DNA of 64,000 nt from contig NC_058053.1 in the NCBI RefSeq assembly GCF_020085105.1, forward strand, positions 24,477,196-24,541,195. The letters run 5' to 3'. A model generated the notes under the pieces. The model searched no databases. It was not told where the DNA came from and saw nothing but the letters and a program-made list of their open reading frames with translations. The DNA comes from Siniperca chuatsi. Its lineage: Eukaryota. Below are positions 2,871 to 45,175 of this stretch, piece by piece (positions within the stretch are counted from its first letter, which is position 1; each line of letters starts with the position of its first letter). Made by a program: the position numbers and the translations under genes.

Positions 2871-2894
2871 AAGAGCCAACTGAGTCAAAGAACT

Positions 2895-3140
2895 GTCGCC
2901 TCAACTCTGGCCAATGGCCTTCTCGGAGATGTCCCGCCCCTTCCAATCACCGCACAGTATTTGTTCCCGTTAGACAAAACACACAGCCAATCAGATGGCT
3001 GAATTTGTTCCAATTGCGAGAATCAATGTTTTTCGCATCCAATGGGAGAAGCGGATTTGTTCCAATTTCTCTCAGTGATCCCGCCTCCTGCAAGCGGACT
3101 TTTTACTGCAGCGGAGACAGAAGCAAGTCGGTGAGTGAAG
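2895..3140 (+). promoter_or_regulatory. Putative RNA polymerase II promoter plus first non-coding exon: six CCAAT motifs in ~250 bp, GC box 'cccgcccc', then 'gcggagacagaagcaagtcg|gtgagtg' splice donor
   Basis: Motifs read in the sequence (ggccaatgg, tccaatcac, gccaatcag, tccaattgcg, tccaatggg, tccaatttc). Established: NF-Y CCAAT and Sp1 GC boxes are typical of TATA-less promoters. Confidence 0.35.
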
Positions 3141-3699
3141 CATTTGTCAATTATTATGAAGTATTGGACGGAAAACATGTTAAAAACTTATAATTCCGTC
3201 TGACAGTCATACTGAGCTAACCGAGGTGTTTGTATGTTGTGAAATAGTTGAGTGACGGATGACACAGCGTAAAGTTAGAGCATTATTAGTTCTTACAATG
3301 TCAGACTTTAATTTTACTGTAAGGAATTTATTATATAAACGTTTTTATAAATTGCTTTGTTTTAGCCAGCTAACGTTCATGCTGTTAAAACCATTTTAAA
3401 CACTGTACTGCAGGCTGATAGCATGCTAACACACCCACCGCTGTCGGCTGGTCGGTGTGTTTCATACTGCTTATGTGATTAACAGTCCAGCGGAGCTGAA
3501 GGCAGCCGGCATGTTTTATGGGGAAACTAGCAGCTGGTCGAGTGGCTGGTGGATTCCTTAAGCCTTCCTGTTCCACCAGGAGAGAAAGTGCAGCTCCTCA
3601 CCGTATGAATATTCAATTAGCCATGCTGCCAGGAAGGTAAACAGAGGCGGAGCCTGCCATAGGCAACAAGCGGAGAGAAGCAACAGTCAAAAGGTCGCT

Positions 3700-3850: not shown

Positions 3851-3877
3851 CTCCTCTTTTTACTCAGTCAATGAACT

Positions 3878-4122
3878 GTCGCCTCAACTCGGCCAATGGC
3901 CTTCTCGGAGATGTCCCGCCCCTTCCAATCGCCGCACAGTATTTGTTCCCTTTAGGCAGAACACACAGCCAATCAGATGGCTGAATTTGTTCCAATTGCG
4001 AGAATCAATGTTTTTCGCATCCAATGGGAGAAGCGGATTTGTTCCAATTTCTCTCAGTGATCCCGCCTCCTGCAAGCGGACTTTTTACTGCCGCAGAGAC
4101 AGAAGCAAGTCGGTGAGTGAAG
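3878..4122 (+). promoter_or_regulatory. Second copy of the CCAAT/GC-box promoter-like module with the same splice donor
   Basis: Same motifs as 2895-3140. Confidence 0.35.
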
Positions 4123-4267
4123 CATTTGTCAATTATTATGAAGTATTGGACGGAAAACATGTCAAAAACTTATAATTCTGTCTGACATTAGTCATAATGA
4201 GCTAACCGAGGTGTTTGTATGTTGTGAAATAGTGAGTGATGGATGACACAGCGTAAAGTTAGAGCCG

Positions 4268-5815: not shown

Positions 5816-6615
5816 CTGAGTGAATTTACTGTAAGTCTGTGTTTTTCCTTTGCTTAGTGTCAGATCGTCGTTGTACCATGTGCCCTGCGTTTGGCCCCAG
5901 TTCTGCATTTTTCCTATGCCTCTGTGTCCTCTGTGGATTTACCTTTATTGAACTTCTCAAGGATTAGTCTTTGTTGGATGTTTTACCTGAACTTCTTAGC
6001 CGCCCTCAGTTGTTTTTGTCTTCCTTCATAGTAAGTAAATAGTTAAAAGTTATCTTTTGTTCATTTCACCATCTCCGTGTGTATTGTCTACATGTGGGTC
6101 CACCTCCTGAACTGAATGCAACAACTGTGTTTCACTCTGGGCAGCAGGTTGAAGCCCCTACAGCCCCCTCTTTCAGCAGCCAAGTATTATGGACACTGGG
6201 TAGAGATTTTAATGCCAAATTGATATGTAGTGTAAACATTACAAGTATGAACATTTCACTTATGAGCAGCAACTGAAAAGCCCACTCAAAGAAGCTTCTT
6301 TAGAAATAACATTGTTTTCTGTCTACAGTATAGGCTATAACAGTTTTTAGGAACCTGTAAAATATTAAGTTACTTTATTCCTTTTACACTTGTTCTTGTG
6401 ACTGAACATTAAGCAAATCTAGCTTCTGAAAGTTCCTGTTTCAAGTGAGGTGACAACCACTTACCGCACAAACTATATTTACTGTCTTTGAGATGTGACT
6501 TCCTGAATCTAAAGTTCATAACAACTGAACCCAATAAGAGTTTTCTCATTTTCATGTAGAGAAACTTGCGCTCCAGAGTCGACCCTCGACAAAATATCTG
6601 GCATTCTTATGAGCG

Positions 6616-6682
6616 ATGGAGGAAATCTATGTGAATGTTGAATATGACAAATCTGACTCAAAAATGTCACAGAATCAGACAG
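6616..6682 (+). CDS. Lectin A exon 1: cytoplasmic tail MEEIYVNVEYDKSDSKMSQNQT (YxxV motif); ends phase 1 at a GTAAGA donor
   Basis: ATG at 6616. N-terminus 'MEEIY(V/A)NVE' matches fish CLEC4/CD209-like receptors as I recall them. Donor gtaaga at 6683. Confidence 0.75.
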
Positions 6683-6796
6683 GTAAGAATGAGTAGCACA
6701 TAAGCTGACAGACTAAGCTCTGCATAAATGTGTATTATTATCTGTCATATTACTGTTGTATACTTGATTGTATTCACTGGTCTTCTCTGTGTTCAG

Positions 6797-6898
6797 GTCC
6801 CAGGAGCCCAGAGAGCAGGTTTCATGGAGCTGTTGTTCTCTTTCTGGGGCTGCTGAATGTTTTCCTGCTGGCTTTGCTCATCTGCCTCGGTGTCCTCT
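6797..6898 (+). CDS. Lectin A exon 2: transmembrane segment ...GPRSPESRFHGAVVLFLGLLNVFLLALLICLGVL
   Basis: ORF track 6730-6981. 'ttcag' acceptor at 6796, GTGAGT donor at 6899. Hydrophobic 23-aa stretch. Confidence 0.8.
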
Positions 6899-7472
6899 GT
6901 GAGTCTGGTTCACATTCAGAAGTTAGTCAAGCTGAACTCATGATTATAGGAACATCATTCACTTTAACTTTTCATCCATGATTTACTCTGACCTGTTTTT
7001 AAAATTTTTATTTTTTGTTTCGATTGCATTGTTTTCAATATTTTGTACACAATCAAACCTCAAACAGCCAAATCAACATAACAATGCCTCATTTCATTTT
7101 TGTGACGTGTTCAAATTGAATTGGTGCATTTCAGCATTTATCCAGTATCAACTTAATTGCTTATTACACGAGTATCATTTTCAAGACACAAAAGCAGTGA
7201 CATGTTGTATTTCTACTGCTGACAGCTGCACTGAATTACATTTGATGTTCAATTAAACTGCAGTCAAATATGTTCCCTTTACTGAAGACTGCCAGAGTTT
7301 CACTACACTCTTTGAATGGCAGTATTTCATAAGTTTCATTAAGTATGATCATTGATAATCGTGGGACAAAATAAGGAAATATGTAGTCTTGTGAAATACA
7401 ATAGCTCTTTCTATAGAACATGAATGCAGAAGATATCTTGTGTTTCAGAGAAATGTCTCTTGATTATTTCAG

Positions 7473-7667
7473 ACCATAACTCAATACGTGGCTCAGCTGC
7501 AGATTTCTCCACTATCAAAGCCAACCTGACTGAGCGTCTCCAGGCCAGTGATAACAGGTCTTCTTCCCTGACTGAAGCAAGAGACCTGCTGAATGCCAGC
7601 CTCGTTGAAATGGCTAAAGAGTTGAAAAAGCTTCAGAATTTGTCCAAACAGGGAGTACCTGCATGTG
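7473..7667 (+). CDS. Lectin A exon 3: coiled-coil neck (...STIKANLTERLQASDNRSSSLTEARDLLNASLVEMAKELKKLQNLSKQG...)
   Basis: ORF track 7424-7675. Acceptor 'ttatttcag' at 7472. The 3' end was chosen (7667, 'tgtg|gtattt') to keep phase with the next exon; this boundary is uncertain. Confidence 0.6.
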
Positions 7668-8276
7668 GTATTTAGATTTACTTGCTGTTTCTTTAAACAT
7701 TTCTTACTCAGAAATTCCATGATAAAATCACCCTGCATTGTGTTATGGTATTTTTAGTATTTACTCTATGATTTAGTAGCCAGTTTCAGTCCAAAACTAG
7801 AAATTTTATTAATGAAATGTGGATAAAACAAAAGTGGTCTCTATCTCTGCATGTTACTGCATTGTGGCAGTAAATCTTTCTCTCTTCACAGATGACAAAT
7901 TCTAGTTTCATACTGAATGCTAAACTGCGGACACAACAGCTAACTATTCTCTGTTGGCTGCACAAGAGTTACACTGCATGAGATGATCACTAGTAGATGA
8001 GACCATTTATATGGTTCATTTTTTAAACTTTCGTCTTGTTCTTGTGAAAAATGTAATAATTACAATCATAATCAATCAAGCAGGTCAAAAGTTTGAAAAA
8101 ACAAGCAGAAAAATCACAATTTGGAGTCAAGTCTCAAAGTATCCACCAAGGTTACACCAACCAAATGAGCAGCATTAAAGGGTCATTCATTGAAGAAGTT
8201 GACATACAGACCTAACTTCACAAATACATTAACATGAGTCTTGTTGATCTGTAGTTTCTCTTGATATATCTTGCAG

Positions 8277-8419
8277 AGAAAACCTGTCCTGCAGGATGGA
8301 CGATGTTCAGTTATGCCTGTTATTTCCTCTCTGATGAGTCTGGTTCCTGGGATAAAGGCAGAGAGTACTGCAGAGGCAAAGGAGCAGATCTGGTAGTGAT
8401 AACCAGCACTGAAGAGCAG
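8277..8419 (+). CDS. Lectin A exon 4: CTLD part 1 (EKTCPAGWTMFSYACYFLSDESGSWDKGREYCRGKGADLVVITSTEEQ)
   Basis: ORF track 8261-8554. Acceptor 'tcttgcag', donor 'cag|gtactg'. Canonical CTLD start 'CPxGW'. Confidence 0.85.
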
Positions 8420-8777
8420 GTACTGTGTGCGCGTCTTAGCGTTTCCATTAACCTTCTAGCATGTGTTAACACAACACCTAAAAGCAATGTCTACTTTATG
8501 AATTCAATCAATACATATCTGAACATAAATCCCTGCAACAATTCCTCTGTCTGACTGTGGACATCGGACCACACAAAATATCCAGGTGGCCATCTGGCAA
8601 AAGGATTTAATGAAACTCTTTTTTGTTTTTTTTGTTTAATTCTAGGTAATTATAATGACCTAGGTTACAACAATTTAACTTTTACTTTTGTTATTCATAG
8701 ATTCAGATAAATACTTGTAAATGGCACATATTGTGGTTAAAACTAAAATATAATGTGGGTTTCCTTATGTTGAACAG

Positions 8778-8881
8778 CGTTTTCTCTTGGGGTTAACCAA
8801 GAAACCTTCGTGGATTGGTTTGAACGACAGAGATGTGGAGGGGACCTGGAAATGGATAGATGGAACTCCACTGAATCTGAC
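8778..8881 (+). CDS. Lectin A exon 5: CTLD part 2 (RFLLGLTKKPSWIGLNDRDVEGTWKWIDGTPLNLT)
   Basis: Translated by hand. Acceptor 'tgaacag', donor 'gtaagg'. WIGL(N/T)D motif. Confidence 0.85.
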
Positions 8882-10011
8882 GTAAGGCTTCACTTTGGTT
8901 GAATATAGACATGAACATACAACTATCATTTTATATTACTTTATTTGTTTTGGATTGAATTTCCAGCAGAGATTTCTCACAAGCATAGATGCTGTGCATG
9001 CATAACATCTTTTGTTGATGGCCATCTTTGGTGAAGCCCATAACCAAACTACCTGGGCACAGGTAGTCAGTTTTTGGCCGCATGGGGGAACTCAAGTTGC
9101 TAAACTCAAAGCCCTGATGTATAATCACCTTTTTAAAACATTTTATTGCAAATGTGATGGCAAAAATGTACACATCCAGGAGACACAGACCAACATTTAC
9201 TTTCATCTGGACTTAATTAATGTAAGTCAAATGGTCCATCTCTAATTAATTAACTTTCTTTCACCACTATCTCCTGAGAAAAATATGACTCTTTAGCTGC
9301 TTTTTTTTCTTTCACCAGCTAGTCTGTATCTTCATCAGACATTTGGTGCTGGCAGTGTACAGTGTTTATCTGAAATTATTTTGCTAAAAACAGCTTCCTG
9401 CTGCTGGAAATGGAGTTGATGAGTGCAGTAAGACTGAACTATACAGTAAACGTGCCTTAAAAATCAAGAGGTTAAAATGCTGCACAGTTGGGTGATAATT
9501 CTCAGCGAGTTCATCACCGTTAGCAGCGACTTTCATCACACGTAGACATTTGATTCATTGTTAACATAAGAATATTGGGCCTCATGCAAGAGCATTTTCA
9601 TAGTCTTACCCTAAACCTCTTTAGTTTTTTTTTTTTACTCATGTGTTTCAAGTCGAATTCAACAGACTGATAACCTCACAAACTATAAAATTACTCGTTC
9701 AGGTGAGGAGGTGCAAGTTTGCGATTTTATCATTATCATAATCAATTTTCCTATAATCAGATCTCTAAGTTTAAAAAACAAAACTAAAATTGACAAACCA
9801 TAATGAGGACCCCCCATGACTAATGCTGCTTCTTGGAGGACAGTTTCTTTAGAAAACACTACAAATGAGCCATTTCAAAGATATGAGAAATTTCCCAAAT
9901 TAGGATGATATTGGACCCAGTGTTTCAGAAAAATGACTTGTTCAGCCACTGAAGGGCTGCGTTCATGTAAGAGAAACAGTGTCATGATTCTCTTGTTCAC
10001 TGACCTGCTAG

Positions 10012-10162
10012 GTACTGGCACAACAATCAGCCTGATAATGGTGGCGGGAGCCAAAAGTGGGGTGAAGAGGACTGTGCACATATCAGAACGGAGTGGAGCA
10101 ATCATTGGAATGATTTATCATGTAATGCTGCTCTGCAATGGATCTGTGAAAAAATTGCGTAA
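10012..10162 (+). CDS. Lectin A exon 6: CTLD part 3 (YWHNNQPDNGGGSQKWGEEDCAHIRTEWSNHWNDLSCNAALQWICEKIA*), QPD motif
   Basis: Hand translation in the phase inherited from exon 5. Not in the ORF track, whose 9933-10205 ORF is in another frame. QPD = Gal/GalNAc-type Ca2+ site; WND and the cysteines are conserved. Confidence 0.85.
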
Positions 10163-11799: not shown

Positions 11800-12260
11800 A
11801 TTTCATACTGTACTTATTTTGAGGTACTTTTCTTGATACCATTTTCTACTACTTTATACTTCTACTCCACTACATTTTAGAGGCAAATAGTGCACTTTTT
11901 ATACCACTACATTTATTTAATAACTTTAGTTACTTTGCAGATTCAGATTAATAATACATTATATGATCAACAAATAACTGATGTATTATTACGGGTAAGA
12001 TAAGACATTAATGAAAAAATATAGAAATTCACAAGCTGCCCAGCAGAATATAAAGTAATTAAAATTTGCCCCACCTTTACCTGCTGCAACACTAAAAGGA
12101 TGTACACATTTATGCATCAATAATTATTCTGAAACGGGCCATTTTGCATAATTAGTACTTGCTAGTAATAAAATTGCTAGTACGTGCTTTAAATATATTT
12201 TGATGCTAATACTTTTGTACATTACTTGAGTAAAGTTTTGAATGTAGGACTTTTACTTGT
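11800..12260. repeat. Teleost 'tacttgagtaaaagtac / acttaagtacagtacttg' repeat family (probable non-autonomous DNA transposon); one of >=5 copies
   Basis: Characteristic palindromic 'agtacttaagta / tacttgagtaaa' words. Other copies at 15840-16215, 16600-16770, 44760-45175 and 49185-49320. Confidence 0.45.
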
Positions 12261-12995
12261 AACAGATTATTTCTACACTATTGCCAATCACTGGTCACAT
12301 CATAGCACACCACTAGAATGTGTTATCGTGATGCTGCAGATCACTTTATGCCTATTTTTAAAGAGGTGCAACCTCCTCCCATGATAACAGCTTGCTATTA
12401 CCACTGTTCTGGAGTAAAAGTAATTAGGGCAAGTCTGGTGGGTTGCAGCTGTATTCACTCCTGTGTGTTGGTCAGGACACATTAGCAGGAGCACAGAGTT
12501 ACTGATTTCTTTATGAATGTTGACCAGTGGATATTCAAGCAACAGAATCCTCCAAATATGGTCTGGAAAAACACAAAGAAAAATACAGGATATCTCAATC
12601 TAAAGCATACCCAACAAACGTAAACAAATGACATAAATAACTTGAAGCGAACAGATTGCATAATGAATACCTGGTTATACTGGAAGTCAGTAATACACCC
12701 TGCACAAACTGCACTACAAATGCTGTAGACATTCTGGTAAATAGTTGGCTATGCCACATTAGAAGAGAGCTGACACTACCCTCTAGTAGGCAGGTTTTTT
12801 ATCTGCAATGTAGCTGGATTTAATTAGAACAAATGGAACTAATGGACTACATTTCTGCAGCTTTCTGCATTTGTCCCCCTTTTAAAATGTAAAAACTTGA
12901 ATATGGCACCAAAATGAAATGAGGCATTGTTTTATTAATTTGGCTGTTTGGGTTTGATTTCTTTTCTGTGTACATTCACAAAATATTGAACCTAC

Positions 12996-13012
12996 CTAAC
13001 CCTAACCCTAAT
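12996..13012 (-). repeat. Short interstitial telomere-like repeat (CCCTAA)2.7 exactly at the truncation point of a duplicated lectin TM exon
   Basis: 'ctaaccctaaccctaat' read directly. It abuts the 3'-truncated exon copy at 13014. Confidence 0.6.
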
Positions 13013-13013
13013 G

Positions 13014-13111
13014 GACACCGAGGCTGATGAGCCCAGCCAGCAGGAAAACACTCAGCAGCCCCAGACAGAGAACAACAGCTCCACGAAACCTCCTCTCTGA
13101 GCTCCTGGGAC
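13014..13111 (-). pseudogene. Lectin paralog C: TM-exon-like copy (SGPRSSERRFRGAVVLCLGLLSVFLLAGLISLGV), 3'-truncated
   Basis: The reverse complement matches the TM exons of A and B, with the 'ctgtgttcag' acceptor retained. The last ~6 nt and the donor are replaced by TTAGGG-like repeats. Confidence 0.6.
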
Positions 13112-13237
13112 CTGAACACAGAGAAGACCAGTGAATACAGTCAAGTATACAACAGTAATAATGACAGATGATGATAACAATAAACATCTATTCACAGCTC
13201 AGTCTGTCAGTCTCTCAGTCTGACTGAACATTCTTAC

Positions 13238-13289
13238 CTGTCTGGGTATTTAAGGGTCTTGGGTCAACAGGTTTGTCGTGTTCCTCCAT
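13238..13289 (-). pseudogene. Lectin paralog C: exon-1-like copy (MEEHDKPVDPRPLNTQT, gtaaga donor) lacking the IYVNVE (YxxV) segment
   Basis: Reverse complement aligned with B exon 1 (MEEIYVNVEHAKPVDARPSTNQT). Similar upstream flank. Confidence 0.5.
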
Positions 13290-13329
13290 TGATGCCGACT
13301 ATTTTATGAAGGGTCACCTCTGCAGCACA

Positions 13330-14395
13330 TGCTACGTTACATGTAAATGACTTAAGTTGTCTGCAGGACAAACTCTCCCAGCTGAGTGTGACTGACTCCA
13401 CCTGCAGGTGGATCACACACTTCCTGTCCGACAGGAGGCAGCACACAAGGCCGGGGAAACGTGTCTCTGACTCCCGGACCATCAGCACCGGTTCCCCCAA
13501 GGCTGCGTTCTTTCGCCTCTGCTCTTCTCCCTGTACGCCAACAGCTGCACCTCCAGTCATCAGTCCGTCAAGCTCCTGAAGTTCACGGATGACACCACCC
13601 TCTTGGGCTCATCTCTGATGGGGATGAGTCCGCTTACAGGTGGGAGATTGACCATCTCATGATCTGGTGCAGTCAGAACAACCTGGAGCTCAATGCTCTC
13701 AAGACAGTGGATATAGTTGTGGATTACAGGAAGAACCCAGCCCCACCTGCCCCCATCACCCTGTGTGACTCCCCAGGTGACACTGTGGAGTCCTACGCTT
13801 CCCGGACACCATCATCACCCAGGAGCTCAAGTGGGAGCTGAACATCAGGTGATTGGCTGCAATCTACCTTCCCTCCAGGACCTGTACGCCTCCAGGACCC
13901 CGAGGCTGCAGGAAAGATTGTGGCAGACCCCTCCCACCCTGGACACAATCTGTTTCAGACACTCCCCTCCGGCAGGAGGCTGCGGTCCAAAAGGACCAAA
14001 ACCTCACGCCACAAAAACAGTTTCTTTCTGTCTACAGTTTCTTTCCGTCAGGACCCCCACTGACACTGACTCCCATAACCACCCAACTCACCCCTTTTAG
14101 TACAGACTGTACAACTTTTGCACATTCCCATGTAAATATTTTGCACATCTCTGCACAAACTGTAATTTAAATAAGTCATATTGTACATATACTTTATTAT
14201 TTTCTTATGCTCTTTTTAAATATTATTTAATATCTTATTGTCAATTTTATCTTATATTTATGATTCTTGACCTGCAGTACTTGCTTTATCTTTCCTCATA
14301 TTTCTACTATGTTTACTGTTTTGCGCCAAAATACCAAAGCAAATTCCTTGTATGTGTGAACCTACTTTGCAGTAAAGCTGATTCTGATTCTGATT
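13330..14395 (+). mobile_element. 5'-truncated non-LTR retrotransposon (RT domain ...GAPQGCVLSPLLFSLY...FTDDTT... with frameshifts, then the ORF2 tail ...LQDLYASRTPRLQERL...HPGHNLFQTLPSGRRLRS... and a ctgattctgattctga tail). Copy 2 of the Rex1/Babar-like family
   Basis: ORF track 13388-13579, 13659-13841, 13717-14100 and 13853-14170. RT motifs read by hand. Confidence 0.7.
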
Positions 14396-15839: not shown

Positions 15840-16215
15840 GAAAAGGAGAAAGTGTGGTCAGTGGTGGCAGAAGTACTCAGATCTTTTTCTTAAGTAGAAG
15901 TAGCAATAACACAGTGTAGAAATACTCTGTTACAAGTAAAAGTCATGCAGTACAAAGGAACACATTTATAATAATACATGATAGTTTATTTGTTGATAAA
16001 ATGTTGTATTAATAATCTGAATATGCAAAGTTACTAGTAACTAAAGCTTTAAAACAAATGTAGCGGAGTAAAAAGGACAATATTTGCCTTTGAAATGTAG
16101 TGGAGTATATGAATAAAGTAGCATAAAAAAGGAAATACACAAGTACCTCAAAAATGTACTTATGTACAGTTACGTAATTCCAAGGTCTTGGAATTTTTCT
16201 TTTTATAGAAAACTG
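15840..16215. repeat. Copy of the 'tacttaagtaaaagtac' repeat family (in a lectin B intron)
   Basis: Same motif words. Confidence 0.45.
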
Positions 16216-17968: not shown

Positions 17969-18899
17969 CGCTCATGAACATGCCAGCTTTTTCCTAGAAG
18001 GTCAGCTCTGCAGCATGGACCACATGTAAATGATGAAACGCCTGATGGTTTCAATTTCTCCTTTTTTCAATTTATGAGGAAGTGACAAATTTCAGAGGTG
18101 ATGAAAATAGGCTGTACCATCCACCACTGAAACTCAAATTGCATGACTTCTGCATGGTGTCACGTGTCTTTTTATCTATAGATGATCTTCACACTGCATC
18201 ACGTTTGTACTGAGATTGGGAAACTGGCTCTTAAATACTATGCTCTACAGATGTGGAACATTCTGCAGAAGCTTGTGAAATTAGACAAGCTTTTAATCAA
18301 TTAAAATCTCCTTTGATTGACAGAGCAGTGTGAATGCATGTTTTCTTCGAATTGATCTTGTCCCTTATGTTGATGTCCTTGGCCCTTTTTGTAGTATAAT
18401 TTGTTGAATGTATACTGTAACTTTTGTGGGCTTTTTCTGCTTTACAGGTACTGTAATCAGGACCAGTTCGATTCTCAGTGCGGATGCGTCGGTGCATGAC
18501 AGCTTACAGATTGTAATTCCCACGCCGCTATTTTGATTTGTGTAACTTACTGTTACCAGCAGTGCTGTGCGAGAAATGACTGTTGAGAAAGGAAAGGCAC
18601 GTTTCTATTTGTTACTAGATGTTTATTTCTTTCAGTCCTGGCCACCTGTAATGCCTCCACCAGGCCTGCTACACACAGCATAAACTGTAAGTACCAGTCA
18701 TGGCTACTTGACTTTAGACGGCTGATTTTACAATGTCTTCAAAGGACAGTAACAAAACATTTAAAGACTGTCATCTATATTTTGAAGTGTTGCTCCCTTG
18801 TTCTATTTTCTCCTACAGATGTGACATAATAGTGTTGTAAACATGAAAAACTGAGCCACCCTTTATAGTTAACTTTATATTTTTCATTATCTGAAGCAT

Positions 18900-22540: not shown

Positions 22541-22642
22541 CTAGAGAATGGATGCCCTTGCTTTTCAGGAACACGTTGGCAAAGAGTTCTACATCGACAT
22601 TTATGAATTCACCCAGTTCTGTGGTTAACTCCCAGAAGCCCT
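22541..22642 (-). CDS. PARP4: PARP4 MVP-interaction-region exon (EGFWELTTELGEFINVDVELFANVFLKSKGIHSL)
   Basis: ORF track 22443-22652 (-). Human EDGFWKLTPELGLILNLNTNGLHSFLKQKGIQSLG. Confidence 0.8.
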
Positions 22643-23857
22643 CCTGCAACACACAGATAAATGTTTCAATTTTTCATTTCCTATGCAAACCAATGTCCCA
22701 CTTCCCCACGGACTGCTAGTATGAAAAAGCATGCTAATAGTCAAGGACAAAAAAATATGTTTTTTTAAATCCAAGAAAGACAAAAAAACAGTACTGTAAG
22801 TTGCTTTGGACAAAAGCGTCTACTAAATGAATGCAATGTAATGCAATATGTTACACGTTATATACAGTATGATGACACTGAAATTGCTTAGTAAGAGATT
22901 GTAAGGAAAACCCTGTGGTGAAAGGAATGACATTTAATAAAAATAAACTTTCAAACTATGGCAGAACTTAACTTAAATATTGCTAAAACTGACGCAAAGC
23001 AACTGCTTTTGTAGCCCAAATTGGCTCTGCTCATGGACGCATGCTGTCAGAATACATCATTGAAACTGCTGACATTAAATCACTCACAACACTGTCTGTT
23101 AAGAAATGGTTCCAGTGTTTGAACAAAGTGCAATGCAGGCTTCGTGACAGATAGTGGTCCTAGAACAATGGGTTACAAAAAAAATAAATCAAAAAATCAA
23201 AAGATCAGAATTGATAAACCTTTCTCAAAGAAGACATTTTAACTTTCTGCAGGAAAAGCAAAGGTTTAATTTAGGCACACAAGTAAGCCAGCATACAAAA
23301 TATTAGGGCCCTGGAATTGCTACACCTGAATGAAATGCAGCCATGATTTATGTTTTTAGTTTAAGCTAAGTTTAGTTTCATCTGTTCATTGGCTACATTC
23401 AAGTAGACCCAATGAAGTTTTATCATATCTTACTGAATGCTGCATCTTGAAGATCTTTGTCCATCTGAGCTTCAGTACTTCAGGATCTGCTGCCTCTCTC
23501 CTGAAACAACATGATCACAGCAGGACACTCTTAGTGAATATTGACAATGATGTGACAGCTGTTCTATATTAACAACACACATGCATCCAGAAATGTAAAC
23601 ATAAACACACACTTATGCTGACTTTCTTTTCCTTCCACATGCATAGATGCATACATAGGACAAATAACTTTCAGTCCATTAGTCAGTTAACATACAGATG
23701 ATGTAGTCTGTTTTCATTTTTTCAACCAAAACCTTGCCACCATTTCAAATGAGTAAAGCATTTTGACAACAACAATTGATTCACAAGAATTATTATTAGG
23801 GTTTTCTAAGTTGAAGCATATCTAAATAATAATAATAATAATTGTTTTTGGACTTAC

Positions 23858-40112: not shown

Positions 40113-41640
40113 CTTGAGAGAAATGTATATTATTAATAATAGTAATTCTAGTACTACTGTAATGGCAGTGGTAGTAAGCTAAAATTAAATTGCAGCTTTA
40201 CCTTTTCAAAAATCGAATACTTGGCCACTTGAAAATTATCCGGATACGTTGGAAGATCAGAATCAGTTTCAGTATAATGTCTGTGAAAATTTAACAATTG
40301 AAGACAAAAATGCAAAGATCAATGACATTTTATTTATTTTATTTGGGAATACGTTTTTCTGCAGAAATGCTTATGAAAACTAAATGTTGACTTAGTTTTT
40401 AAACTCTTGTAGTGTGTTTTCTCCAGTTGTTTCTACCACCATGTGACAAAGGTATGTGATAATATGGTTATTCTACCAGAGGTGTGTGGGTGAAGAAAAG
40501 GAAGGAAAATTATCCATTTTCTTTTGAAAATTATTCTTATGGTGGGCTGCCTGTGAGTGTGTGAAAGCTACTCTCTTTAGTATTATAATAAGTCTATAAT
40601 AAGTCTTATAATACGTCTTTGACTGAAGGAGCAGGGAATACTCAAAGATATACAGGAATAGGCTGTCAATCAGCTTCATAAAGGCCTCATCTGTCTATGC
40701 CAAAAGTGTCACACTATATTTACGATGCCAAATAAATGCTTTAACCATCTTTAAAATTAATAAGATTTTGTTGTATGGCATTGTCTCCTAATCCCCAGTG
40801 TTAATATAACACACTACTGTGCATGTCCAGGATGATCGTTGTTCACACCTGAACTTTCCCAGGACGTTTCCGCTCCTCTCCGGACTCTTTGCCCTCTGAG
40901 GCGCGCCAACTGCTTTGCTTGTTGGTACTTTGGACACTACAATGCACAAGGCAGAACACATATACATTAATAACACACCCAACCTCTGGTATGCATTTAA
41001 ACACACAGGCTATGTAAGCGAGGTGACATATGGATTCCTGAGAAGGATCATGAGTCACTGTGTTGGAAATGGGTGGAGTTCTGATTTCTGGTTCAGCCTG
41101 TCTGTCCTCTGTAACTGGCTGACACAGTACAAACAAAGTGAATGATTAGCATTTTACATTGCCACATCTCTGATTGCACAAACAGTGTACAAACCCACAC
41201 TGCATAATCTGCACATTTTAAAACAACCCAACTTTAATTTTTAATTTATTTTAAAGTTCGATACATAAAAAGATAAATAACGAGCATTTACAAATATCAG
41301 GGTTAGGGGTAGGCGTGCTGCAGTAACAGGGATCAATAAAGCTCGGATTTGCATAGCCCTGTAGCCACCGACAGTTTAGTTTTGGAGCCAGCGTTGGTGA
41401 TGTCCTTTTCTTTGGAGTTTGGTAAGTTTACTTTGAGTTTGGCGCTATTTTCCTTTGCCTATCCAACCATAGCAGCCATTGCTACTCATGCTAACTAGCC
41501 AATTTTTCTATTTACTACAAACAAACGAGAAATGTAAAATTTAAGATGCATCCATTAGTGAATTTTAAAGACTTCCTGGATCGAGATTGATCAATATCTA
41601 TGTGCTTTTTGGAAACAATTACTGCTTATAAGAATAATAC

Positions 41641-42052: not shown

Positions 42053-42800
42053 TTGAAGAAGGATATCACCGCCAGAGAGTCAGCTCCACCCCACAATGTC
42101 ACTGGCCTGATCCGTAAGGCCAGTGACATTGTGGGGCTGGAGCTGGACTCTCTGGCGGTGGTGTCAGAGAGGAGGATGCTGGCCAAACATGCCATCTTGG
42201 ACAGTGTCTCCCACCCTCTCCATGACGTGCTGTTCAAGCAAAAGAGCACCTTCAGCGGAAGACTCATCCCCCCACAATGCACCACAGAGCGCCACAGGAA
42301 GTCATTCCTGCCTGTGGCCATCAAACTCTTTAACTCCTCCCTCTAAGGGTTAGTCTGTATGACCCTAGGTCACTAAACTGGACATTGATCTTTACATCTC
42401 CGCCATAATTGAATAATTGTGCAATATTCTGTGTACTACTCCCATGCAATATTAGTTTTCCCATGTTAGTTTTTCCTATTTATTGTTATTGATATTATAT
42501 ACCTCTATTACTCTCAACAGTACATGCACCTCTGCTTATTACTTATTACTTATTTTGTTACATTGTATTATTATACTGTACTATCATCATCAACCGGTAA
42601 GCCCACTTGGTACTCGACACTTAGTTTATCTTATACTTATACCCACCCGGTACCTAATTTATTCTCTGACCTGTTTTTATAGTGTTTTTATAGTGTATCA
42701 TATTGTTTGCTAGTACTTTCTGCTGTGTGAACTGACGTAAAGGCAAGCTACTGTAACAAAGAGTTTCCCTACGGAGATCAATAAAGTATTTCTGATTCTG
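42053..42800 (+). mobile_element. Non-LTR retrotransposon 3' end (ORF2 tail ...SVSHPLHDVLFKQKSTFSGRLIPPQCTTERHRKSFLPVAIKLFNSSL*, 3'UTR, ctgattctgat tail); copy 3, inside PARP4 intron 1, antisense to the gene
   Basis: ORF track 42053-42346 (+). ~90% identical to 2305-2870. Confidence 0.7.
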
Positions 42801-42883
42801 ATATTTAGTTTTTAATAAAAGGCCTTAACCAGCCTGATATCTCTGCAAACAGTCATGCCTGGTACTAAGGAACATCCTCTGAC

Positions 42884-44760: not shown

Positions 44761-45175
44761 TAAATAAAAATACAAAAGTATTGGCATCAAAATATACTTG
44801 AAGTACCAAAAGTAAAAGTAGAGTGGTCCATTTCAGAATTATTTATATTATATCACTGGATTATAATTATTGATGCATTAAGCATCACTTTAATGATGCA
44901 GCTGGTAAACTTATCTTAACCTATAATAATGCATCATAATACATATTTGTTGATTATGTTTTGTATTATTAGAATCTGCAAAGTAACTAGTAACTAAAGT
45001 TATCAATTAAATGAAGTGGAGGTAGAAGACAATGTTTGCCTCCGAAATGGAGTAGAAGTATAAAGTAGCATAAAATGGAAATACTCAAGCAAAGTACAAG
45101 TATCTCAAAATTATACTTAAGTACAGTACTTGAATAAACGTACTTGAAGTAGTTGAATGCATCAGAAATCCTTCT
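44760..45175. repeat. Copy of the 'tacttaagtaaaagtac' repeat family
   Basis: Same motif words. Confidence 0.45.

Follow-up and report, generated by a model that had tools for sequence, protein, structure and literature searches.

A pseudogene relic in the CLEC4/CD209-like lectin cluster of the mandarin fish Siniperca chuatsi, with a deletion probably patched by telomere-type sequence

The 64-kb window of Siniperca chuatsi (mandarin fish) DNA analysed here, i.e., the whole stretch of 64,000 nucleotides under study, is a CLEC4/CD209-like lectin cluster in which two intact genes (A and B; Table 1) lie convergently, tail to tail, with a spacer of 4.5 kb between their stop codons. A third, incomplete copy (C) is situated inside this spacer, on the strand of gene B (i.e., the minus strand) and ca. 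1.3 kb past the gene B stop codon. A first-pass annotation made from the sequence alone had described C as a truncated paralog capped by a telomere-like tract at a duplication breakpoint, and had regarded it as either a dead duplicate or the donor of a motif-less isoform. The locus raises the question of what C is, when it arose, and whether the tract marks the end of the copy.

The intact genes were assigned by means of a query protein built from conserved exon blocks, the top matches of which were the S. chuatsi proteins P0001 and P0028. With the exons of gene A as tblastn query, no CTLD exons other than those of A and B were found in the whole 64 kb, confirming that no neck or CTLD exons follow C. 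The 6.4 kb of the window that precede gene A likewise gave no lectin exon with tblastn. A search for known RNA families in the window yielded none (Rfam, at gathering thresholds), and look-ups of exact products (P0001, P0028, and P0010, and the 59-, 98-, and 47-aa ORFs across C) returned none on record. In the literature on Siniperca CLEC4/CD209 genes, nothing specific to this cluster was found.

Table 1. Features of the B/A spacer and its flanking lectin genes (positions in the 64-kb window).
Feature	Position	Strand	Remarks
Gene A, intact	6616-10162	+	CD209 antigen-like protein E; exons match S. chuatsi P0028; Lectin_C E=6e-24
Intron-2-like remnant of C	12893..12990	-	Adjoins far side of tract; true 3' end of copied segment
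Telomere-like filler ATTAGGGTTAGGGTTAGGTAGG, 22 nt	13012-12991	-	Directly after TM-exon-like segment; junction CC/ATTAGGGTTAGGGTTAGGTAGG
TM-exon-like segment of C	13111-13013	-	Reads GPRSSERRFRGAVVLCLGLLSVFLLAGLISLGV
Intron 1 of C, 126 bp	13112..13237	-	Aligned to intron 1 of A, B, and two Micropterus genes; acceptor CAG 13114-13112
Exon-1-like segment of C, 52 bp	13289-13238	-	Includes ATG 13289-13287; reads MEEHDKPVDPRPLNTQT plus one G; intact GT donor 13237-13236
5' flank of C	13290..13355	-	Homologous to promoter-proximal/5'UTR DNA just upstream of the A and B ATG (global alignments)
LINE fragment, 5'-truncated, frameshifted	13361..14395	+	Antisense to C and gene B; ca. 70 bp upstream of the C ATG; (GATTCT)n tail 14380-14395
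Gene B, intact	17968-14679	-	C-type lectin domain family 4 member E-like isoform X2; exons match S. chuatsi P0001; Lectin_C E=7e-24

The sequence features listed by the first-pass annotation were all recovered at the positions it had given. The homology of C to the parent-type genes spans exons and introns in genomic order, running from the 5' flank (in which C 13350-13292 matches gene B 18033-17980 by BLAST) via exon 1, intron 1, and the TM exon into a piece of intron 2. Since intron 1 is retained, the copy was made from genomic DNA rather than from mRNA, i.e., it is unprocessed. The TM-exon-like segment is 92% identical to that of gene 1 of Micropterus salmoides (see below), 89% identical to that of gene B, and 86% identical to that of gene A.

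In affine-gap global alignments against both A and B, the exon-1-like piece displayed an 18-bp gap exactly over ATCTATGTCAATGTTGAA, encoding IYVNVE, so that the reported loss of this tyrosine motif could be upheld. The gap is bounded on both sides by a GAA direct repeat, and a loss between such 3-bp direct repeats is as would be expected for slippage or microhomology-mediated deletion. In the same alignments, 9 bp are also missing immediately before the ATG. A MAFFT alternative, in which the ATG of C falls on the internal AATG of the IYVNVE codons, was rejected, as the combination of the 9-bp and 18-bp gaps keeps a 9/9 match to ATGGAGGAA. This two-gap solution was preferred because it is also the optimum of the affine-gap global alignment against both A and B. 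As a separate observation, A, B, and Micropterus gene 1 carry an upstream out-of-frame ATG (ATGAGCG) directly before the start codon, and the 9-bp loss (C 13290-13300 vs. A 6605-6615 and B 17969-17980) takes out this ATG in C.

The telomere-like tract follows the TM-exon-like segment without any intervening sequence, as the first-pass annotation had it. It consists of a perfect TTAGGG-phase run of 17 nt (13011-12995) and a degenerate TAGG (12994-12991), which amounts to 2.8 perfect units, or to ca. 3.7 units when the degenerate TAGG(TT) is counted and three single-base deletions are allowed. An iid model predicts 3e-5 such runs of 17 nt in 64 kb, and no other telomere-phase run reaching 11 nt was present in the window or in the two outgroup loci L001 and L002 (ca. 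118 kb altogether). Telomere-type 12-mers with one mismatch were found three times in the window (vs. 0.18 expected), with two of these matches overlapping inside the tract and the third located at 41297. The tract is absent from the Tandem Repeats Finder output, for which it is too short. It supplies an in-frame TAG at 13010-13008.

The splice donor of the TM exon of C is destroyed exactly where the tract starts. Ancestral-type exons end in GTCCACT/GTGAGT (with the slash marking the exon end), and C reads GTCCATTAGGG at this position. At this left junction, the ancestral bases may have been CAC-T or CAT-T, and according to this single C/T difference the microhomology in register would amount to 0, 1, or 2 nt (T or TT). 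Together with the GTGAGT donor, C misses at most the last 0-4 nt of the TM exon. The first-pass annotation was correct in stating that the donor is gone at the tract, but the last codons that it also considered lost are thus largely in place.

Immediately past the tract, homology to lectin intron 2 restarts at TTCAATATTTTGT (12990-12978). Specifically, C 12990-12893 matches gene A 7034-7117 in alignments (and C 12959-12894 matches A 7051-7117 in the self-comparison of the window), C 12978-12893 matches 22579-22664 of the Micropterus locus L001 (86 bp, 95%), and C 12990-12947 matches 16931-16889 of the Enoplosus locus L002, which is intron 2 of the A-ortholog (44 bp at 95%). Because intron-2 homology resumes after the tract, the copy extends beyond the latter and actually ends near 12893, i.e., ca. 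100 bp further on. In gene A, the last base shared to the left of the tract is 6895 and the first one to the right is 7034, leaving 138 bp (6896-7033) in between. Moreover, intron 2 is continuous at the tract position in Siniperca gene A, in a Micropterus relic described below, and in the Enoplosus A-ortholog, in the last of which the replaced length exceeds 138 bp. Judging from these alignments, the tract is a 22-nt filler that stands in place of an internal segment which had a length of 138 bp or more and contained the splice donor as well as the beginning of intron 2.

The intron-2 piece (12990-12893 in the window, 22579-22664 in L001, and 16931-16889 in L002) is 95% identical across these loci, compared with only 72-77% for gene B introns and their Micropterus orthologs. 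An identity of 95% is unusually high for neutral DNA and counts against reading C as a relic. The piece may represent an element under constraint within the intron of the A-type gene, or BLAST may simply have picked the best short stretch.

In the Micropterus salmoides locus of P0002 (L001), collinearity between gene 1 and gene B extends over the exons, the introns, and the 3'UTR. An orthologous relic was found at L001 22379-22690, at the same syntenic site, i.e., ca. 1 kb beyond the gene 1 stop codon and on the same strand. It retains the 5' flank of C (C 13355-13318 vs. L001 22379-22415, 87%), 23 bp of the TM exon (96%), and the 86-bp intron-2 piece. Both relics share GAATGTACACAGAAAAGAA, which is absent from Siniperca gene A, and this shared feature identifies them as orthologs. 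The syntenic position of the counterpart of C 12990-12893 further argues against an unrelated dispersed repeat.

The Micropterus relic contains no TTAGGG and has ca. 150 bp of intron-2-like DNA at the position where C carries the tract. It has lost exon 1, intron 1, and half of the TM exon to a 267-bp deletion, and the end of the TM exon to a second deletion, so that the reading frame of C is not conserved in this ortholog (with the start codon and half of the TM exon gone). The junction of the 267-bp deletion lies in a GCTGC.GAG string that is present in both the 5' flank and the TM exon, which suggests that this deletion may have been microhomology-mediated. Given the tract-less relic in Micropterus, the stump, already devoid of lectin exons, predates the Siniperca/Micropterus split, and the tract was added later, on the Siniperca side. 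The idea that the copy is a recent event tied to the tract had to be abandoned for this same reason.

The Enoplosus armatus locus of P0020 (L002) shows the same convergent layout of B-ortholog and A-ortholog, and collinearity is seen at either side of its spacer (window 14589-14397 and L001 21429-22306 correspond to L002 12611-12987, and window 12794-12226 corresponds to L002 13151-13660). No trace of relic C was found in the intervening 163 bp, even with a very permissive search. The first-pass annotation had proposed to look for C in other species, and the copy is indeed present in Micropterus salmoides, without the tract, but not in Enoplosus armatus. The Enoplosus A-ortholog shows the ancestral junction GTCCACT/GTGAGT and the ancestral intron 2, which aligns along its full length with the Micropterus relic and also with the intron-2 piece of C; this alignment indicates that the relic derives from an A-type 5' end. 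With Enoplosus as the single outgroup, the history of the relic may have been that a partial copy was inserted in the Siniperca/Micropterus ancestor, or that a full third gene was reduced before the split and lost in Enoplosus.

The same outgroup bears on the DNA downstream of C. A stretch of ca. 830 bp was considered as a Siniperca insertion relative to Micropterus, and this was rejected because Enoplosus has the same DNA (window 12794-12226, i.e., L002 13151-13660), making the difference a Micropterus deletion. Elsewhere in the Enoplosus locus, a PARP4-like gene with BRCT, PARP, VIT, and VWA domains (L002 1-7526) flanks the lectin cluster, and a third lectin gene is positioned head to head with the A-ortholog.

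The LINE fragment that had been noted upstream of C proved to be real. Its translation, stitched across frameshifts, matched RVT_1 with 43 bits (E=4e-11) over profile positions 97-190 of 205, and on its recognised motifs we tentatively take it to be an L2-type element, i.e., a non-LTR retrotransposon of the L2 clade. It is absent at this site in Micropterus and Enoplosus, and its flanks are collinear with the intergenic DNA of both. Other repeats in the window include a dispersed repeat of ca. 190 bp with 73-77% identity between copies (at 11817-12004 in the spacer, at 15967-16170 in a gene B intron, and at 44910-45127), a copy of which also occurs in the Enoplosus locus. The GC-richer start of the window further contains a direct duplication of ca. 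400 bp (2879-3281 and 3862-4265, 96% identical and ca. 1 kb apart), and a 550-bp repeat (2315-2863 and 42218-42802, 84% identical) recurs at a distance of 40 kb.

Synteny identifies Micropterus gene 1 as the ortholog of B, and the Enoplosus A-type gene as that of A. The TM exons of A (6797-6895) and B (17800-17702) have three derived bases in common, reading AGCCCAGAGAGCAGG and CTCTTTCTGG, and C and both Micropterus genes carry AGCTCAGAGAGGAG and CTCTGTCTGG at those sites. The pattern looks like gene conversion between the convergent paralogs, with relic C keeping the older state. With a TM exon older than those of A and B, C could help to reconstruct gene conversion in this cluster.

C shows several disabling lesions, i.e., the absence of neck and CTLD exons within the 64 kb, the deletion of the exon-2 donor, the TAG at 13010-13008, and the deletion of the tyrosine-motif codons. 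Combined with the homology in genomic order and the unconserved frame of the Micropterus ortholog, these are the features of an unprocessed partial pseudogene. The product of C had no Pfam family match, Lectin_C being found in A and B only, and C is thus devoid of the downstream Lectin_C domain by which a functional CLEC4/CD209-like receptor is recognised. No evidence of function was found for C, and a function does not appear to be supported.

One question with regard to the tract is whether the lectin duplication itself broke in or just after the TM exon and had its end healed by telomere-repeat addition, which would make the tract a duplication breakpoint. The tract does start only 0-4 nt from the end of the TM exon, no further exons follow, and the TTAGGG strand runs 5' to 3' away from the gene fragment, as expected for healing. 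However, ca. 100 bp of lectin intron 2 follow directly past the tract, in the correct order and orientation, and the Micropterus relic has the same 3' end without any tract, so that the tract must have been added to an already truncated fragment. We therefore regard a duplication breakpoint, as well as the capping of the copy that had initially been claimed, as very unlikely. An assembly artefact, in which both the tract and the deletion would stem from a consensus or joining error, is exceedingly improbable, as both flanks are collinear, in the right order and on the right strand, with the orthologous relic and the paralogous introns (unlike in a chimeric join), and as the tract is far too short for a scaffold-end telomere. 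Somewhat more room should be given to a tract that is not telomeric at all, i.e., random or templated end-joining filler, or mutation and slippage of the old donor region (TCTGTGAGTCTGGTT) with an unrelated deletion adjoining it. Indeed, with its 2.8 perfect units the tract is very short and below the usual criterion, a MAFFT alignment shows it to match the ancestral donor region at 7 of 15 positions, and end-joining junctions often carry short filler. Nevertheless, such an origin is rather unlikely given how rarely a perfect 17-nt telomere-phase run is expected per 64 kb, the absence of a local template for the tract in the window, and the ca. 8 specific substitutions that would be needed to turn the donor region into the tract, against an identity of 86-92% to its relatives in the remainder of the copy.

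The fragment could also be functional, either through splicing of 13238 to 13111 into a 51-residue decoy membrane micro-protein or as a gene-conversion donor for A and B. Its ORF, with a splice in the correct phase, is uninterrupted between the ATG and the TAG of the tract, the 18-bp loss is in frame, both the donor and the acceptor of intron 1 are intact, and A and B show signs of sequence exchange in the TM exon. Against this, the Micropterus ortholog has no exon 1 and only half a TM exon (so that the unit is not conserved), the LINE is inserted ca. 70 bp upstream of the ATG, and only 1 of the ca. 8 TM-exon differences from Micropterus gene 1 is synonymous (as counted on the alignment), giving no sign of purifying selection. 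Moreover, one in three deletions is in frame by chance alone, and the in-frame size of the 18-bp loss, like the TAG stop of the tract, is best read as an accident in neutral DNA. Among 5.8 billion protein sequences, none had the motif-less N-terminus of C, and a search with the spliced 51-residue product retrieved two short proteins only (P0121 and P0122), both of which keep the IYxNVE motif. We thus consider a functional fragment to be highly improbable. The most specific version of this idea, i.e., a type II membrane micro-protein of 51 residues (MEEHDKPVDPRPLNTQT-GPRSSERRFRGAVVLCLGLLSVFLLAGLISLGVH) that would be unique to Siniperca, be spliced from the relic, and owe its stop codon to a telomeric repeat, is extremely unlikely; if true, this protein, devoid of tyrosine motif and lectin domain, would pair with full-length CLEC4-like receptors through its TM segment and damp their signalling. 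Nothing was found in favour of the motif-less isoform donor that had been suggested earlier, with no downstream exon on the strand of C, no TM-exon donor, and an in-frame TAG provided by the tract. Of the two readings of the first-pass annotation, it is the dead duplicate that was corroborated, C being truncated, without lectin domain, and with its donor destroyed.

Taken together, C is very probably an old, non-functional, unprocessed partial relic of a lectin gene that decayed independently in two lineages, with the Siniperca tract representing a deletion that was patched with telomere-type filler. The copied segment would have begun with ca. 65 bp of 5' flank and continued through exon 1, intron 1, and the TM exon to a point a few hundred bases into intron 2. 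A stump without neck and CTLD exons would then have been present in the common ancestor of Siniperca and Micropterus, followed by separate decay in each lineage. On the Siniperca side, this decay is proposed to have included the 18-bp deletion between the GAA repeats (by which the IYVNVE codons were lost), the 9-bp deletion beside the ATG, the antisense insertion of the L2 LINE ca. 70 bp upstream of the ATG, and one deletion-plus-filler event. The latter would have cost C its exon-2 donor and no fewer than 138 bp of intron 2, and would at the same time have introduced the 22 nt of telomere-type sequence.

The tract has the pattern of a single clean replacement, with a flanking deletion and short TTAGGG-type repeats reading 5' to 3' from the proximal break end. 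We infer that an internal double-strand break was repaired here and that the tract is a product of this repair. Once the break had been resected, its 3' end (...GTCCA(T)(T)) would have been lengthened by telomerase, or else a fragment of telomeric DNA would have been captured, with subsequent joining to the distal side of the break. In mammals, short interstitial telomeric sequences (s-ITS) have been described as arising in this way. The earlier suggestion that a broken end was repaired is therefore reasonable for the tract itself, as internal double-strand-break repair, but not for the end of a duplication. At this tract length, i.e., below four units, an involvement of telomerase cannot be distinguished from other sources of filler. 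Comparisons of filled and empty loci in primates and rodents have shown that s-ITS are inserted at sites of double-strand breaks, that loss of flanking sequence is the commonest accompaniment of insertion (ca. 50% of loci), and that 1-5 nt of in-register microhomology are frequent (PMC2246262); the analysis has since been extended to other vertebrates, including fish (PMC8537989). [quoted passage not shown] Since the tract falls short of four units, we describe it as working like an s-ITS rather than filing it as one.

For annotation, C should be labelled as a pseudogene relic, and should not be merged into gene B or called a short lectin isoform; beyond annotation, it matters little. It does provide a neat case, from a teleost, of telomere-type repeats patching a deletion, a process that has been documented mainly in mammals, and one paralogous and two outgroup references show what the tract replaced. 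The B/A lectin spacer has held the stump since before the split of Sinipercidae and Centrarchidae.

Compared with known systems, the tract shares with chromosome healing and neotelomeres that telomere-type repeats sit directly on unique sequence, in an orientation that fits extension of a 3' end. Neotelomere-type junctions have unrelated DNA beyond the repeats, whereas in C the original sequence (intron 2) continues past them, at an internal site and with a repeat of only 17-22 nt. Given this internal site and short repeat, no chromosome end was ever formed or retained there. The resemblance extends further to the s-ITS at double-strand breaks (Nergadze et al. 2004/2007; PMC2246262, PMC8537989, PMC7215372), which likewise consist of internal TTAGGG-type repeats and in which insertion with loss of flanking sequence, as seen against "empty" related loci, is the commonest class; in C, there may be 1-2 nt in register at the break. 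In contrast to s-ITS with their four or more units, the C tract has 2.8 perfect units, and its "empty" references are a paralog and a decayed ortholog rather than a clean orthologous site. With regard to the TERC-ITS subclass, no TERC-derived flank was recognised at C; the bases after the tract (TTCAATATTTTGT) are lectin intron 2, leaving only AGGTAGG unexplained. C also differs from the s-ITS studies in having a teleost host and in being a single case and not a census.

Finally, judged by its sequence, C as a whole is an old and ordinary unprocessed pseudogene, the stump of a gene for a lectin receptor. It resembles the partial pseudogenes of tandem immune-receptor clusters (CLEC4/CD209-like and NK-receptor-type C-type lectin genes), in which promoter-proximal DNA, exons, and introns were likewise copied together, and, like these, it resides within the cluster, is devoid of the functional domain, and has been hit by indels and the insertion of a transposon. 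Nothing essential sets C apart from such pseudogenes, among which it stands out for its age, being common to Sinipercidae and Centrarchidae.
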